A stretch of 64,000 nt of DNA from an uncultured Chloroflexia bacterium (GTDB taxonomy: Bacteria > Chloroflexota > Anaerolineae > JAAEKA01). Shown piece after piece: positions 5,362 to 62,974 of the stretch; positions within the stretch are counted from its first letter, which is position 1, and each line of letters opens with the position of its first letter. The stretch lies in the NCBI GenBank assembly GCA_963709505.1, contig CAVPXC010000033.1, positions 9,289 through 73,288 of the forward strand, given 5' to 3'. A program made the position numbers and the translations under genes. The notes under the pieces were generated by a model, which saw nothing but the letters and a program-made list of their open reading frames with translations, was not told the DNA's origin and made no database searches.

Positions 5362-5829
5362 TCAATCCGGCTCTTCCGGCTCCCCATCATCAGGAGATTG
5401 AGGCTCGACGGCTGGCAGGTAGGACCGCCAATCTTCGACGGTTGCCGGGGCCGCACGTGGCGGTTCGACTCTCGTCCCGTCGGCCTTCGTCATGTGGAAC
5501 TCGCCGTTGTAGAAGCCGCCTTCTTGCACGATCAACCGGCTGGCCGTTACCGTGGCCTCTACCTGGCCTGTGGGTGTGATCTTGAAGATGTCCTGACAGG
5601 TAACCTCGCCTTCCAGCTCGCCGGCGACGGTAACATTGCTGGCAGTTACCTTAGCCTTGACACGGGCGCCTTGCTCCACAATCAGCGTTCCCTGGCAATG
5701 GATCTCGCCTTCGGCTTGTCCTTCTACTCTCAGATTCTGTTCGGTTTTGTAGAGACCGTCGAAGTGGGAGTCGCGGTCCACTAAACTCTCGCTGTTGGTG
5801 CGTTCACCTGCGGGTATTGTCGTCGCCAT
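5362..5829 (-). CDS. Bactofilin (polymer-forming cytoskeletal protein)
   Basis: Repetitive beta-helix pattern (G.L.V.....V.G.V.A..V.V.G...G.V) with an acidic, proline-rich tail. Confidence 0.8.
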   Translation of the reverse strand: MATTIPAGERTNSESLVDRDSHFDGLYKTEQNLRVEGQAEGEIHCQGTLIVEQGARVKAKVTASNVTVAGELEGEVTCQDIFKITPTGQVEATVTASRLIVQEGGFYNGEFHMTKADGTRVEPPRAAPATVEDWRSYLPAVEPQSPDDGEPEEPD

Positions 5830-29802: not shown

Positions 29803-30194
29803 TTGGCGGCAATGGAACTTAACTATCTGGGAGTACGCAGCATTCAACCTATTGACGAACTGGATACCTTCCCGGCGCCTGCTGGCCTGGGCCGCGTCAC
29901 CATGACCTCGGACGAGTTGACAGCCCTTTGTCCCGTGACCGGCCAGCCGGACTTCTACGTGCTCACGATCGAATACGAGCCGGGCCACTGTGCATCGAGT
30001 CAAAGAGCCTCAAATTGTATCTCTGGCACTTCCGCGACCGCGGGGTATTCTGCGAGCAACTGGCGGTCGATATCCGAGACAAAGTCATAGCGACGATCCA
30101 CCCGAAGACCTGCACGGTCAAGCTGGTCCAAAAAGCGCGTGGCGGCATCACTATCGAAGCGCTGTCGGAGTATCGGCGAAGCAGTGAACAGTGA
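29803..30194 (+). pseudogene. queF: NADPH-dependent 7-cyano-7-deazaguanine reductase with an apparent -1 frameshift
   Basis: LCPVTGQPDFYVLTIEYEPG (frame 29803) joins CIESKSLKLYLWHFRDRGVFCEQLA (frame 29928). The shift is at about 29985. The stop lies inside the GTGAACR array. Confidence 0.75.
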
Positions 30195-30358
30195 ACGGTG
30201 AACGAGTGAACGGTGAACGGTGAACGGTGAACGGTGAACGGTGAACGGTGAACGGTGAACGGTGAACGGTGAACAGTGAACGGTGAACAGTGAACGGTGA
30301 ACAGTAGAAGTAGTAGCCTATACTGTTTACTGTTTACTGTTTACTGTTTACTGTTCAC
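30183..30358. repeat. About 17 GTGAACR heptamers followed by about 5 inverted copies (CTGTTYA) between convergent queF and the rhodanese gene
   Basis: Read directly from the sequence. Both convergent CDS ends lie inside the arms. Confidence 0.95.
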
Positions 30359-30994
30359 CACCGGCAAGCCTGCCTGCTCCCAGGCCTGAAGACCGCCTAG
30401 GATTGCCTTGACGTCGGTATACCCCTGATCCATCAGGAATTGCGCCGCACGGGCGCTTGATTCTTCGGCCGGTCAGGTGCAGTAGGTGAGGATCTCGGCG
30501 TTCTTGGGAAGCTCATGCCGGCCGGCCTCCAGCTCGCTAAGCGGGATCGACGCCGCTCCCTCGATGTGGGCCGCCTGGTAGTATTCCACACCGCGCACAT
30601 CGACAACCACGACCTGGCCGGAATCCAGCCGCGCCTTGGCGTCGGCCGGGCTGATCCTGGGCACGTCAGGATAGGGAACGTCCTGCTGCGAGGCTGCCGG
30701 CGACTGGTTGGCGGGCACAAGGGTCGTCACCGGCTCTTGACGATTGAACAGCAGCGCGGCCAATAAGCCGATTATCAACACGGCCCCGCCAAGGGTGAGC
30801 CAAAGTCTTCGGCTGCCGCCACCACGAGGCTGGCTTTTAGCCTGCTGCGTCTGCCCAGCGATGGACGGGACGCCCTTCGGCCGGGCTGTCGCTACAGCCG
30901 CCCCGCAGGCGGTGCAAAAACTGGCGTCCGGCTTGAGCTGCGCGCCGCACTTCGTGCAGAACTGCGTTGGGCCGGGGGATGGGGAGTCGGTCAT
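30341..30994 (-). CDS. Zinc-ribbon / TM / rhodanese-domain protein with an in-frame UGA (30475-30473); candidate selenoprotein or nonsense pseudogene
   Basis: Start MTDSPSP at 30994 after GGAG. FCTKCG..FCTACG, then a TM, then the rhodanese domain. The frame reads ...ILTYCT-TGA-PAEESSARAAQFLMDQGYTDVKAILGGLQAWEQAGLPVVNSKQ-TAA with no other stop. Confidence 0.6.
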
Positions 30995-31233
30995 GTCGAG
31001 TAATCTCCGATTTTTTCGATAGGATGGGGAGCATCGGCATTTGCCACAGGGATGCGCCAGAACCCGCAATTCGACGGTCAGGAAAAGCGCTTTCAAGGCG
31101 CTTTCGGCCAACCACTAGCCGGGGCCGAAATTCCTGCTATCATGGCAAGTGCGCCGGCCCTGCACTGGCAGGCTAGCCGTCGAATTCTGACATGATAGCG
31201 GTAGAAGCGCAAATCTGCCAAGGAGGATCATCC

Positions 31234-32743
31234 ATGAAACGGTTTTATCTGATCGCATTCCTATCGGTTGCCGTTCTGCTCGCAGCCGGGTGCGCCCAGG
31301 TCGCGCAGCCTGATCAGGCGAGCGCCGGCCAGGCCGTAGCCCAAGAAGCAGCCGCCACTGCTACCCCCAGTCAACTGACTATCGTCAAGGCGGATGTAAT
31401 GGACATGCCGGCCGGCCAACATGTGATGACGCATACGATGGTTATGACTCATACCATGACGATGGCTAATGGCACGGCGATGCCAATGACACACACAATG
31501 ATCATGACCAACACCATGCCGATGACCGACGACAAGGCAATGCCGGCCGATCACGCCCTGCACCATCCGGATATGGCCGCGGGTGCGCCGATGACCATGA
31601 CCATGCCGATGACGCACACCATGCCGATGACCGACAGCATGGCAATGCCGGCCGATCACGCTATGCACCATCCGGGGATGGCTTCGGGTACGCCGATGAC
31701 GATGACTATGCCGATGACGCACACCATGCCCATGATGCCAATGACAGGCACCATGCCCATGATGCCGATGATGCCTGCGATGCCAACGTCTGACAACCAG
31801 AACATGGACTCCATGCAAATGGGTCAGATGATGGACATGATGGGCCAGATGATGCAGATGATGGGCCAAATGCACATGAAGATGGGCGCGGGTGGCATGG
31901 ACATGACAGCCAGTATGCCAATGACCGGCACTATGCCCATGATGCCGATGACCGGCACCATGCCCATGATGGGCGGCCAGGGCACGCAGTCCATACAGAT
32001 GGGCCAGATGATGGACATGATGGGCCAAATGATGCAGATGATGGGCCAGATGCACATGAAGATGGGTATGGGCACGATGGCTCCGGATACGGCCAGCCAA
32101 GGCTCCGGCATGTGCAAGATGATGGGCGGCAAGGGCTGCGACATGATGAAGCAGGCAGCCGCCGGCCAAGGCTCAAGCATGTGCAAGATGATGGGCGGCA
32201 AGGGCTGCGCTATGATGAAGCAAGCAGCCGCTACCGGCCAAGATTCCGGCATGTGTAAGATGATGGGCGGTAAAGGCTGCGCTATGATGGCCGCCATGCC
32301 GATGACCCCTACCATGCCGATGACGCCTTCGATGCCCATGACAGGGACGATGCCAAGCGCGGCGGCTCAACCGGCTGCGGCGAGTGGCTATGCGCCTCAG
32401 ACGGCCGAGGCCGGCGCGGTAACGGTTACCCTCACGCCCCGCAACCTGGCCGATCCCGCCGCCCAAACCCTCGACTTCGACGTAGCCCTGAACACCCATT
32501 CCGTTCGACCTGAGCGGCGACCTGGCCAAGCTCGCCACACTACGGGCAGGCAGCAACCAGGTTGCTGCGAGCACCTGGACTGCCCCGGCAAGTGGGGGCC
32601 ATCATGTTGCAGGTTTGCTCAGTTTCCCCGCTGTTGACGCAAAAGGTCAGCCGCTGTTGGAAGGGGCCAACACGGTCGTAGTGAGCATCCGCAACCTGGC
32701 GGGCGTGCCGCTCCGCACCTTCACCTGGATGTTGGGTCAATGA
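31234..32743 (+). pseudogene. Extremely Met/His/Cys-rich lipoprotein (putative Cu(I) binder) with an apparent +1 frameshift before its C-terminal domain
   Basis: RBS AGGAGG. Lipobox LAAGC. MPMTHTMPMTD runs, GQMMDMMGQMMQMMGQMHMKMG twice, MCKMMGGKGC[DA]MM three times. After LNTHSV the protein continues in the next frame as DLSGDLAKLATLRAG...GGHHVAGLLSF...TWMLGQ, and the stop overlaps the MCO ATG. The shift is at about 32504. Confidence 0.65.
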
Positions 32744-33801
32744 GACAGTCAACAGCAAAAGCAGTTGGAGCGCTGCTGGCCGGCGCGCTCTTGCTGGTAG
32801 CATGCAGCCAGAGGACGGCGCAGCAACTGCCGGCGGCGGCGCCGTCCCCTACGCCCAGCAGTCTCAGCGGACCAAAGCCCTCCTCCGGCATGGCCCACAT
32901 GATGGCCTCACTGCCAGACGAGAACGTTCCCGCCGCTACGGTCAACGAGGGCAACCAGCCTCTAACCAGCCGCGACGAAAACGGGGTTAAGGTCTTTGAG
33001 CTGACCGCCAAACCGGTTCGCTGGAACTTCGGCGAAGGCATCGAACAGGTGGCCTGGACCTACAACGGCATGGTTCCGGGGCCGCTGATTCGGGTCGTGG
33101 AAGGCGACAACGTGCGCTTCGTCGTCAAAAACGAATTGCCTGAGCCAACGACTATTCACTGGCACGGCATCGAGCTACCGAACAGCATGGATGGCGTGCC
33201 CGGCATGACCCAGGAGGCGATCCAGCCCGGCGAAACTTTTACCTACGAGTTCGTGGCCAAGCCGGCCGGCACCTTCTGGTACCACAGCCACGTCGACAGC
33301 GACGTCCAAATCGGAGTTGGCCTGCACGGTGCCTTTATCATCGACCCCAAGACACCCGATGCCGATCCGCCGGACGTGGACGAGGTGGTGATGCTCAATG
33401 AATGGCGCTTCGTCGACGGCAAGACCTACGCCTCGATGCCGATGTCGGGCATGGACCCCAACTACTTCACCATCAACGGCAAGATCTTCCCGGCCACAAA
33501 GACCGTCCATGCCAAGGTGGGTGACCGCGTGCGGTTGCGCTTCATCGCCGCCGGCCAGTTCGTGCACCCGATGCACCTGCACGGCTTTCCCTTCAAGATC
33601 GTCGCCACCGACGGGCATCCTGTACCCGAGGCGTCACAACTGACCAAGGACACCGTGCTGGTTGCGCCCGGTGAACGCTACGACGTCGAGTTCGTCGCCA
33701 CTGAGCCGGGCATGTGGATGATCCACTGCCACATCACGCATCACACCACCAACGACGGCGAGGAGCCGGGTGGGTTGATGATGGTGGTCAATGTCGAATG
33801 A
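32740..33801 (+). CDS. Small (two-domain-size) multicopper oxidase
   Basis: Copper-ligand blocks HWHG, WYHSH, HPMHLHG and HCHITHH..M. 353 aa with a lipoprotein-like leader. Confidence 0.85.
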   Translation: MRQSTAKAVGALLAGALLLVACSQRTAQQLPAAAPSPTPSSLSGPKPSSGMAHMMASLPDENVPAATVNEGNQPLTSRDENGVKVFELTAKPVRWNFGEGIEQVAWTYNGMVPGPLIRVVEGDNVRFVVKNELPEPTTIHWHGIELPNSMDGVPGMTQEAIQPGETFTYEFVAKPAGTFWYHSHVDSDVQIGVGLHGAFIIDPKTPDADPPDVDEVVMLNEWRFVDGKTYASMPMSGMDPNYFTINGKIFPATKTVHAKVGDRVRLRFIAAGQFVHPMHLHGFPFKIVATDGHPVPEASQLTKDTVLVAPGERYDVEFVATEPGMWMIHCHITHHTTNDGEEPGGLMMVVNVE

Positions 33802-33843
33802 TGAGTGCGGAATGCGGAATGATGAATGGCGGAAGGCGGAAGT
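33796..33843. repeat. Heptamer array (GAATGMG / GGCGGAA units)
   Basis: gaatgatgagtgcggaatgcggaatgatgaatggcggaaggcggaag. The MCO stop codon lies inside it. Confidence 0.8.
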
Positions 33844-33885
33844 CAGAGTGAGTTTCGCCGTCTTAGAGAAAGGATATCTTCAGTG

Positions 33886-34296
33886 ATGATGAAGCGATGT
33901 GTTTTCGCCCTGGCTGTTCTCCTTGTTGTGGCGGTAGTAGGCGCGTGTGCCGCGCCGGTTGCAGCCCCGGCACCTGCAGCACCTGCGGCCAGTGGCCCGC
34001 CTCAGGTCACCCTGACCACCAACCCTAACCCGGCTGCCGCCGCCGGCGAGACCGAGCTGGTGGTCGAGGTCAAAGACTCCGCCGGCAAGCCGCTCAGCGG
34101 CGCCAAGGTGCTGGTGACGGCTGACATGGCCGCCCACAGCATGGGTGCCATGCAGGGCGAGGCTACCGATCAGGGCAACGGCCGCTACGCCACCAAGGTA
34201 CCCTTTGGCATGGGCGGCGACTGGAAGATAACTATCGAAGTGCGCCAGGGCGACACAGTCCTGGCGACCCAAGATTTCGTCGTTCCCGTTCAGTAG
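33886..34296 (+). CDS. YtkA-like domain lipoprotein
   Basis: Lipobox VGAC. DMAAHSMGAM motif. Paralogue of 2258..2686. Confidence 0.6.
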   Translation: MMKRCVFALAVLLVVAVVGACAAPVAAPAPAAPAASGPPQVTLTTNPNPAAAAGETELVVEVKDSAGKPLSGAKVLVTADMAAHSMGAMQGEATDQGNGRYATKVPFGMGGDWKITIEVRQGDTVLATQDFVVPVQ

Positions 34297-34459: not shown

Positions 34460-34991
34460 GTGACCAAGAAGAAGTCTCAGAACAAACCTTCGACCGCAAA
34501 ACAACCGTCTCCATCGCCCCAGCGCGCTCGATGGCCATATGTGGTCTTGGCAATTGTCCTGGTCGTGGCTGCGGCCGCGGCTATCCTCCTGCTGCAATCG
34601 GCCAAGCAGCCTGCCGCTGGCGCGTTGACTGGCACCAGCGCGCCGGCCGGCGCCGGCCGCCCTCAGTTGGTCGTCGACCAGGAGCAGATCGACTTCGGCT
34701 CCGTGCCGGTCAACAAGATGGTCAAGGCCAGCTTCAAGCTAACCAACGCCGGCGACACACCACTCACGCTCTCGGTCCCCCCGGTAGCCCAAGTCGTCGA
34801 GGGCTGCTGACCGCCCAGAATTGTCGTCGGTTCGACGACCTTAAAGCCGGGCCAGCAGACCGATCTCAGTATGGAATTCACCATGCATGCAGGCATGGAA
34901 GGGGAGCATGATTTTCGAGTTCGCGTTGAAGTCAAACGATCCAGCCAACCCGGAACAGGAGCTGAAGGTACTCTCGAATTGGATTCAGTAG
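34460..34991 (+). pseudogene. DUF1573-like membrane-anchored protein with an in-frame UGA (34808-34810) and an apparent +1 frameshift (about 34938)
   Basis: GTG start after GGAGG. The frame reads ...VAQVVEGC-TGA-PPRIVVGSTTLKPGQQTDLSMEFTMHAGMEGEHDFRVRVEVK, then shifts to NDPANPEQELKVLSNWIQ-TAG. The stop sits just before the RBS of the next gene. Confidence 0.55.
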
Positions 34992-35015: not shown

Positions 35016-35276
35016 ATGTGGTGGAATCATGGAGCTGGAATGGGATGGATGGTCGGCGGCGGTTTGATGATGTTGCTGTTCTGGGGAGGATTGATCTTCC
35101 TGTTCGGCTTGGGCGTCTGGGCGTTTAGCCGCTCCGGGCAGCAGCGCTCCGGCGATTCCAGCCAGACATCTGTTGCGAAACAGGATCGCGCCTTGGAGAT
35201 CTTAAAGGAACGCTATGCACGAGGCGAGATCACGAAGACCGAATACGAAGAGATACGCAACGACATTCGAACCTGA
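35016..35276 (+). CDS. SHOCT-domain membrane protein
   Basis: AGGAGG RBS. Gly/Met-rich TM and a C-terminal LEILKERYARGEITKTEYEEIRNDI SHOCT motif. Confidence 0.7.
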   Translation: MWWNHGAGMGWMVGGGLMMLLFWGGLIFLFGLGVWAFSRSGQQRSGDSSQTSVAKQDRALEILKERYARGEITKTEYEEIRNDIRT

Positions 35277-35353
35277 TGGGCACGAAGCTCCAACGCGCAT
35301 GCAGGCGTAGGCATTCCCAAGGACAACAGGGACCAAGAAGCGAGGACATGACT

Positions 35354-35767
35354 ATGAGACGGATTAGCTTGTTAGCAATCGTGATGGCGCTTGTAATCGG
35401 CGCTTGCAGCGCCCCTGGCCCCGGCCAGGTCGACCAGTCGCCGGCGCAGCCTGCCCAGGTCACCAAAATCGACGCCGACCAGCTAGCCACGATGCTGCAA
35501 AACAAGGACTTTACTTTCGTAAACGTCCACATTCCCTATGCAGGCGAGATCGCCAACACGGACCTACAGATCCCCTACAACGAGATGCCTGCCAACCTGG
35601 ACAAGCTACCCAACAAGGATGCCAAGATCGTGCTCTATTGCCGCAGCGGCCGCATGTCGGACGAGGCCAGCCAGGAGTTGGTCAAGCTCGGATACACGAA
35701 CGTCTATGACGTGGTAGGCGGTATGCAGGCCTGGACGGCTTCGGGACGTGAGGTAATCCAAAAGTAA
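35354..35767 (+). CDS. Rhodanese-domain lipoprotein
   Basis: Lipobox IGAC. Active-site loop YCRSGRMS. GGMQAW. Confidence 0.8.
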   Translation: MRRISLLAIVMALVIGACSAPGPGQVDQSPAQPAQVTKIDADQLATMLQNKDFTFVNVHIPYAGEIANTDLQIPYNEMPANLDKLPNKDAKIVLYCRSGRMSDEASQELVKLGYTNVYDVVGGMQAWTASGREVIQK

Positions 35768-62561: not shown

Positions 62562-62813
62562 ATGCAGATCACAATCACTGTCCCTCAAGAACCGTTCCTG
62601 GCTGAGCCGCGTGAGAGTGTATCCAGGAAAATCCGCCTTTATGCTGCGCTCGGCATGTATCGCGCCAGTGAATTGTCTATCGGCGCGGCGTGTGAACTGG
62701 CGGGTGTCGATCGATACACATTCCTCGAATTCTGTAAGCGCCAGGACGTTTCGTTGCAGACCCAAACACCCAGCGAACTAGAAACAGAATTCAAAATGAA
62801 CCTGCCTCGCTAG
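62562..62813 (+). CDS. UPF0175-family antitoxin-like protein (no cognate toxin adjacent)
   Basis: AAGGAG RBS. LYAALGMYRASELSIGAACELAGVDRYTFLEFC. Confidence 0.55.
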   Translation: MQITITVPQEPFLAEPRESVSRKIRLYAALGMYRASELSIGAACELAGVDRYTFLEFCKRQDVSLQTQTPSELETEFKMNLPR

Positions 62814-62974
62814 CCCGATCCCTCAGAGACTAAGGGGGGCAGGCCGCCACACTCGGCGACTTTTCGCGAGGCAGGAGAAGCCCGTGGGCTTTTTGTCCTG
62901 ACAGGGTCAAAAAGCTCCTCCAACTAGCCTTTTCGGGCAAGCCACCTACGAAGAGCGTGACCGATAATCCTCCA

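Follow-up and report, generated by a model that had tools for sequence, protein, structure and literature searches.

Does the TGA that interrupts a rhodanese gene of an uncultured Chloroflexia bacterium end the protein, or is it read as selenocysteine (Sec)? The codon lies on the minus strand, at 30475-30473, of a stretch of contig CAVPXC010000033.1 that was analysed over its whole length of 64,000 nucleotides (the window), and it stands directly after ...AEILTYCT in a frame for which an earlier reading of the letters alone (the sequence-only reading) had proposed Sec insertion. Our analysis indicates that this is very probably a genuine selenoprotein gene, the in-frame TGA being the Sec codon of a membrane-anchored rhodanese. 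The Sec reading of UGA is supported by the conservation of the TGA, by the Cys that occupies its column in homologues, by the open frame downstream and by a conserved hairpin with covarying pairs, confined to the TGA forms.

The UGA codon and the frame beyond it

The complete gene, as taken from the sequence and its translation, occupies 30341..30994 on the minus strand and encodes 216 residues followed by a stop, with the start ATG at 30994-30992, Sec as codon 174 (30473..30475) and a terminal TAA at 30343-30341. The start is fixed at ATG 30994 because the homologues open with M(T/S)DSPSPGP and a GGAG is present at 31008-31005, ten nucleotides (nt) upstream. The open reading frame (ORF) does stop at the TGA after ILTYCT, as had been proposed, and the immediate context is …YCT-TGA-PAEESS…. 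Beyond the TGA the same frame stays open as far as the TAA; the 44 further codons counted in the sequence-only reading include that stop, which leaves 43 sense codons (PAEESSARAAQFLMDQGYTDVKAILGGLQAWEQAGLPVVNSKQ).

A protein homologue search covering 5.8 billion proteins recovers about 25 zinc-ribbon/rhodanese homologues with 100% to 40% identity (P0001-P0027 and P0031), and all of them end at ...YCT, from which it follows that gene callers stopped at the same codon. Such uniform truncation, together with the apparent frameshifts in neighbouring genes of the window, is what could be cited for a nonsense mutation or a pseudogene, in which the protein would end at T173 and the downstream frame would be a relic. 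The DNA of three orthologues (76%, 43% and 40% identity; L001-L003) shows instead the TGA followed by a conserved open frame up to the end of the domain, and there is no degradation of this frame in the close relative L002. For a wider sample, the DNA pattern TAYTGYACNTGACCNNNNGARGARNNNNNNGC, which fixes Y-C-T-TGA-P-x-E-E-x-x-A at the amino-acid level only and leaves the wobble bases of the hairpin unconstrained, was scanned against one genome per species (185,579 species). It matches at least 119 species genomes, compared with about 4 matches expected by chance (our own calculation, in which a uniform base composition is assumed). Among the 119 matches listed, 118 encode a rhodanese domain with the TGA, followed by a median of 42 further open codons and ending in GG..AW..G.P; the carriers are mostly Chloroflexota (Anaerolineae, Caldilineae, Ardenticatenia, Thermoflexales, Thermomicrobiales and Limnocylindria) and Acidobacteriota (Thermoanaerobaculia), with a few others. 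The entropy at the successive codon positions after the TGA is 1.19, 1.03 and 1.74 bits, a pattern equal to that before the TGA. Relatives with a degraded downstream frame, which the sequence-only reading had held would speak against it, are thus not what is seen: at least 118 species have kept an intact, protein-like frame. A protein ending at T173 would, in addition, lack two of the fold's secondary-structure elements as well as the active-site loop. With the same TGA in at least 118 species across several phyla, and a frame under protein-type conservation that ends exactly where the domain ends, the simple nonsense mutation that had earlier been offered as the alternative is excluded, and we regard any pseudogene reading as extremely improbable.

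A sequencing or assembly error, with TGC or TGT as the true codon, would gain some credit from a contig that seems prone to indels. One extra base at about 34919-34922 shifts the frame of a DUF1573-like gene, where GTTCG stands for the GTCG or GTTG of relatives, and the same kind of one-base insertion occurs at about 32495-32505 in a methionine-rich (Met-rich) gene, the true C-terminus of which continues in another frame to 32743. Both insertions, in a GTTCG context at about 34920 and about 32500, are probably assembly errors. Programmed +1 frameshifting at the two sites was considered and judged unlikely, since relatives have GTCG or GTTG there and an assembly error, at sites that are polymorphic or prone to error, is the simpler account. 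Overlapping pairs of ORFs on the same strand hint at more frameshifts, at 2696/2844/3166, 4223/4296, 37784/37986, 41271/42257, 55203/55529 and 56259/56671. The errors seen are, however, insertions and not substitutions, and many projects have independently assembled this TGA along with the hairpin, which is missing from Cys forms; a miscalled codon here is barely conceivable.

The lineage as a whole might, finally, read TGA as a sense codon for Trp or Gly, an idea for which the in-frame TGA itself is the only argument. Because TGA is the genuine stop codon of 41 out of 120 genes in the family, it still serves as an ordinary stop in these genomes; genes next to the rhodanese, e.g., the SHOCT gene, stop at TGA as well, and of the in-frame TGAs in the window just two are credible, each standing at a Cys column and followed by a hairpin. 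We give reassignment a negligible probability. In sum, the conserved TGA, the coding-type frame downstream and the use of TGA as a normal stop exclude nonsense mutation, assembly error and change of code.

The residue expected at the TGA can be read from relatives that use a sense codon. Full-length relatives without the zinc ribbon read YCTCPAEESS (P0028-P0036), and fusions of DedA with a rhodanese domain (P0039-P0080) read YCTCPNDISS or YCDCPNEAS. Codon 174 aligns with the second Cys of this YCTCP loop, Cys occupying exactly the TGA column, and this bears out the earlier statement that related rhodaneses carry a C-x-C-P loop in which the UGA replaces a Cys codon.

Two variations on the domain were noted among the matched genomes. 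In one Anaerolineae genome, two YCT-TGA-P rhodanese domains stand in tandem within a single frame (L039, 6231-6725 (-)), with two Sec codons that each have their own hairpin. At six loci (L016, L045, L085, L086, L107 and L115; Thermomicrobiales, Methylomirabilia and some others), the YCT-TGA-P domain stands at the end of open stretches some 330-1,070 codons long and, judged by that length, may be fused to other domains; L085 has a weak match to the model of the chromate-resistance rhodanese ChrE (49.7 bits, with a cut-off of 120).

The hairpin and the decoding of UGA

Past the TGA, the sequence of the window folds into a hairpin at 30437..30463 (minus strand), in which a lower stem, GAAU/AUUC, pairs 30463-30460 with 30440-30437 and an upper stem, GCGCC/GGCGC, pairs 30456-30452 with 30446-30442 around the apical loop CGUGC (30451-30447). 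This is where the sequence-only reading had placed it, with the loop starting 21 nt after the UGA; bacterial selenocysteine insertion sequence (SECIS) elements follow a spacing rule of 16-37 nt from the UGA. Of the two tiers described earlier, the upper stem-loop (30442..30456), which begins 16 nt after the UGA, proves to be conserved, whereas the lower stem belongs to the fold of this one sequence: in a gap-free alignment of 120 distinct sequences, from the TGA to +60, pair 14:36 is standard in 18 and pair 15:35 in 34, and the lower stem was rejected as a family feature.

In this alignment the five pairs of the upper stem are standard in 97% of cells. Pair 24:30 is CG in 111 sequences, UA in 7 and AU in 2, with no breaks, and pair 21:33 is CG in 102, UA in 9 and UG in 4. 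Doubly changed cells number 19 against 1.8 expected, the observed covariation is reached in 0 of 500 shuffles, and pairing falls to 20-60% when the 3' partners are slid by 1-3 columns. In the stem, the bases that change fall on the third positions of codons for Ser and Ala, and the changes in the hairpin are therefore coordinated and synonymous. Wobble positions inside +18..+33 have an entropy of 0.3-0.6 bits, compared with about 1.8 bits elsewhere in the gene. The loop follows the consensus N-G-U-G-Y, with an invariant G and with U kept in 113 of the 120 sequences, and its codons are CGU for Arg and GGU for Gly even in these G+C-rich genomes.

A control set of 108 Cys-form genes from metagenomes, defined by the same pattern with TGY in place of TGA, behaves differently. 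The wobble positions of the hairpin vary freely in the Cys forms (1.25-1.8 bits at four of the five), all five pairs are possible in 8 of the 108, as against 106 of the 120 Sec forms, and the two closest Cys homologues (YCTCPAEESSAQAG and YCTCPAEESSGQAV) have 2-3 of the 5 positions paired. As a conserved RNA element, the hairpin is confined to the TGA forms and absent from the Cys forms.

The SECIS loop of E. coli fdhF carries G23/U24, which we take to be the counterpart of the loop G-U seen here, a likeness to bacterial SECIS elements. Unlike the fdhF type, the element has only a 5-base-pair (bp) conserved stem, no conserved lower stem or bulged U, and no Rfam match. Bacterial SECIS elements are described as having in common a conserved G within a small apical loop.

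We infer a dependence on SelB and tRNA-Sec, as we do the membrane topology and the biochemical role discussed below: UGA codon 174 would be read as Sec by SelB carrying Sec-tRNA(Sec), and SelB would be recruited by this short SECIS hairpin within the coding sequence, with its G+C stem of 5 bp and its N-G-U-G-Y apical loop, 16 nt after the UGA.

Several observations weigh against the Sec reading. As a single sequence, the hairpin folds with -13 kcal/mol, indistinguishable from the shuffle mean of -12.96 (z = -0.01). The stem is just 5 bp long, and the textbook element of E. coli fdhF is longer. A scan of the window at the Rfam gathering thresholds yields no match at the hairpin, only a DUF3800-IX RNA elsewhere, and a permissive Rfam search of 30300-30560 returns a chance let-7 match and nothing more. 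The hairpin encodes Ser-Ala-Arg/Gly-Ala-Ala, and because these residues are themselves conserved, part of the nucleotide conservation is at the protein level. E. coli SelA, SelB and SelD give no tblastn match to the window or to 124 related loci (about 1 Mb), and ARAGORN detects no tRNA-Sec in the 64-kb window or in the related loci. The assembly, moreover, contains the apparent frameshifts described above and is imperfect in base-level quality, with the TGA itself backed by more than 100 independent genomes. ARAGORN also reports a 'tRNA-???' with a two-base anticodon at 5405-5485 (+), probably a false positive and not a tRNA-Sec.

A second UGA in place of a Cys codon, to which the sequence-only reading had also drawn attention, does exist at 34808-34810, within a second selenoprotein gene of the window (34460..34991, plus strand) that encodes a membrane-anchored DUF1573/Ig-like protein. 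The gene reads ...VVEGC-TGA-PPR, where Cys homologues have VVEGCCPPR, and the Sec forms of this protein in the databases end at 116 residues. A 7-bp hairpin, GTCGTCG-GTT-CGACGAC (34823-34839), begins 15 nt downstream of the TGA. Three other Sec forms (L002, L248 and L249) preserve it, with GTT or GTG as the loop, and in a Cys form it is disrupted. When the window was scanned in six frames for in-frame TGAs next to Cys, only 30475-30473 and 34808-34810 combined a coding-like upstream sequence with a G+C-rich hairpin having a GU loop, and this systematic scan of the window gave no further selenoprotein gene. The closest catalogued relatives are the OS_HP2/DUF1573 selenoproteins (NF041425), which share the DUF1573/Ig-like fold with Sec in a Cys motif. 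In OS_HP2, however, Sec replaces the first Cys of C-G-C, whereas in the present G-C-U-P-P it replaces the second of two adjacent Cys residues (G-C-C-P-P); the protein scores 25.6 bits against the NF041425 threshold of 100 and has no U-G-C motif. The G-C-U-P-P protein does not appear in the selenoprotein catalogues consulted and may be an uncatalogued Sec form.

Two unrelated genes with the same kind of recoding signal argue that the organism decodes Sec, and its capacity to make Sec is assumed here. The literature lists selenoproteins in both Chloroflexi and Acidobacteria. The empty search for Sec machinery in the window and in about 1 Mb of related loci would nevertheless suit a recoding of UGA without selenium as well, in which a near-cognate or suppressor tRNA puts Cys or Trp at position 174. 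Candidates would be tRNA-Cys species that mimic tRNA-Sec (selC*), possible opal suppressors described in some anaerobic bacteria, and the aligned residue in the homologues is, after all, Cys. The reports of selC* concern Firmicutes, Thermodesulfobacteria, Nitrospirae and Proteobacteria, however, and not Chloroflexi, where tRNA-Sec itself has been reported. A TGY codon would supply Cys free of cost, and Cys forms exist, yet the TGA and its hairpin have been kept in more than 100 species, and the G/GU of the loop agrees with the feature shared by bacterial SECIS elements. We therefore consider recoding without selenium improbable, and retain Sec as the residue that UGA most probably specifies at position 174.

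The product and its active-site loop

In the 216-residue product, a zinc ribbon in the cytoplasm would be joined by one membrane helix and a linker rich in Pro and Gln to a rhodanese domain, probably extracytoplasmic. The zinc ribbon spans residues 12-33 (30896..30961, minus strand) with a CxxC...CxxC arrangement and matches Pfam PF13240 Zn_Ribbon_1 with E = 5.8e-9. A single transmembrane helix, LWLTLGGAVLIIGLLAALLF, is predicted from the sequence at residues of about 64-83 (30746..30805, minus strand), and the AlphaFold model of the Cys homologue P0033 shows one long helix for the corresponding N-terminal segment. The basic stretch RGGGSRR stands immediately N-terminal to the helix, and because basic residues precede it, the zinc ribbon is placed in the cytoplasm and the rhodanese domain probably outside. 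After the linker, the rhodanese domain extends over residues 115-207 (30374..30652, minus strand; Pfam PF00581, E = 2e-15) and runs across the TGA, with C172-T-U174-P-A-E as its loop. Short members of the family consist of a signal-anchor and the rhodanese domain and nothing more.

The fold assignment, with a Cys directly after the central beta strand, is also supported by matches to rhodaneses in the PDB, by the AlphaFold model of the Cys homologue and by rhodanese structures found with Foldseek. In the model of P0033, with a predicted local distance difference test score (pLDDT) of about 96 in this region, the central strand (residues 119-123) ends at Tyr and is followed by the loop C-T-C-P-A-E (C124-E129) and by a helix from residue 130. 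Aligned by BLAST with the neighbouring ordinary rhodanese (YCRSGRMS), C172 pairs with the catalytic Cys, and profile alignments to solved rhodanese structures likewise make C172 the catalytic Cys, and leave Sec plus the Pro after it as two inserted residues. Placed without gaps against PDB 6mxv and the adjacent rhodanese, the protein could have Sec at the canonical catalytic position, an arrangement outweighed by the BLAST, profile and AlphaFold evidence. That C172 occupies the canonical position and Sec lies two residues later is well supported but not proven; the UGA is thus in the active-site loop, as the sequence-only reading had claimed, two residues beyond the canonical catalytic Cys and not at it.

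The loop differs in character from those of the classical sulfurtransferases. The domain has the same fold as GlpE, PspE and YgaP (PDB 1gmx, 2jtq and 5hbl) and as the rhodanese domain of PDB 3tp9, and its catalytic-position Cys likewise comes directly after the central beta strand. Instead of their CRxGxR(S/T)-type loop, however, it has Sec with a Pro insertion and an acidic P-A-E-E in place of basic residues: C-T-U-P-A-E-E-S lacks the basic residue of sulfurtransferase loops and does not conform to the anion-binding type C-R/x-x-G-x-R-(S/T), to which it can be aligned only with the two-residue insertion.

Directly after the gene lie two tandem arrays of heptamers, GTGAACG x17 (30184-30302) and TACTGTT x5 (30321-30355) as read on the plus strand, which are roughly inverted relative to each other. 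The second array contains the last codons of the rhodanese gene and its TAA stop, and a similar repeat-encoded tail is found at L002.

The gene cluster and the family

The rhodanese gene is followed on the map by genes for a Met-rich protein (31192-32637, plus strand), a multicopper oxidase (32740-33801), a YtkA-like protein (33826-34296) and a second, ordinary rhodanese (35276-35767); further neighbours are the C-U selenoprotein described above, a SHOCT protein and a two-component sensor kinase. The Met-rich protein is secreted, contains repeats of MTHTMPM and MMGQMMQMMGQMHMKMG as well as of CKMMGGKGC, and has no match in Pfam or NCBIfam; it is presumably a Cu(I)-binding protein of the cluster. 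The syntenic locus L002 has the same neighbourhood as the window, L248 keeps the order oxidase, YtkA, C-U protein, and at L001 heavy-metal ATPases, DsbA and a DUF1573 protein adjoin the rhodanese gene. Elsewhere in the window, Rfam RF02968 (DUF3800-IX RNA) matches at 62796-62876 (-) with 55.7 bits, the gathering score being 36.8.

This gene context suggests copper handling outside the cytoplasm. Because the gene sits in a copper-stress cluster, we propose, with low confidence in the details, that the Cys/Sec pair forms a centre for redox chemistry or Cu(I) binding under metal stress in the envelope; it would be either a selenenylsulfide with redox activity or a site for the soft metal Cu(I), and not a classical thiosulfate sulfurtransferase. 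Two considerations count against the proposal: it is drawn solely from the gene neighbourhood, and that neighbourhood varies over about 118 loci, with a heavy-metal ATPase in 15 and an ArsR-type regulator in 8. A broader and rather doubtful idea is that the C-x-U rhodanese, the C-U DUF1573-like protein, the multicopper oxidase, the YtkA-like protein and the Met-rich protein constitute a selenium-dependent extracytoplasmic Cu(I)/thiol module of Chloroflexota; in such a Sec-dependent copper-stress system, the selenolate might serve as a Cu(I) ligand or as a reductant of copper-damaged thiols.

Within the rhodaneses, the nearest Cys-containing relatives are those with YCTCP, i.e., the short membrane-anchored proteins (P0028-P0038) and the DedA fusions (P0039-P0080). 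They have the same domain and loop, with 37-50% identity over the domain, and differ by TGY at the TGA codon, the lack of a hairpin, free wobble positions and other N-terminal parts. Reviews of prokaryotic selenoproteomes list a C-x-U form of rhodanese, known from prediction only and tied to NCBIfam NF041203 ('rhodanese_LYCAU'). This is the best NCBIfam family for the protein of the window (83.4 bits with Sec written as Cys) and for nine other members (63-93 bits), and none of the ten proteins tested reaches its cut-off of 115 bits. The C-x-U motif that defines NF041203 is present as Y-C172-T-U174-P in the active-site loop, and the two groups share a lone rhodanese domain whose loop places Sec at +2 from a Cys, both being known as computational predictions. 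The motif here is (I/L)-x-Y-C-T-U-P-x-E-E, however, whereas the name of the model suggests L-Y-C-A-U, and the subgroup of the window adds the N-terminal zinc ribbon and the membrane helix. Judged by these sequence comparisons, the protein is the same kind of selenoprotein as NF041203, in a clade below its cut-off that the catalogued form, exemplified in the reviews by TKB26178.1, may already include. Rhodanese selenoproteins with C-x-Sec are thus already catalogued, which lowers the high interest first attached to the locus: the YCT-U-P gene is solid but not surprising.

What the locus adds concerns, above all, how the family is recorded. All database copies that we found end at the Sec codon, one of them named only 'zinc-ribbon domain-containing protein'. 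Because these copies are truncated and NF041203 scores the clade below its cut-off, the family, which occurs in well over 100 species from Chloroflexota, Acidobacteriota and other groups, is systematically mis-annotated; the signature YCT-TGA-P-x-E-E ... AGCGCC-NGUGY-GGCGC would let it be recovered. The SECIS element is compact, conserved across phyla and suited to reporter assays. The placement of Sec beside the catalytic Cys and not in its place, in a probably extracytoplasmic domain encoded, in this organism, within a copper-stress cluster that has a second selenoprotein, points to a possible use of selenium in the metal or redox chemistry of the envelope. The value of the finding would thus lie in the correction of a widespread annotation error, in a compact and conserved SECIS element, and in a hint that selenium takes part in copper handling.

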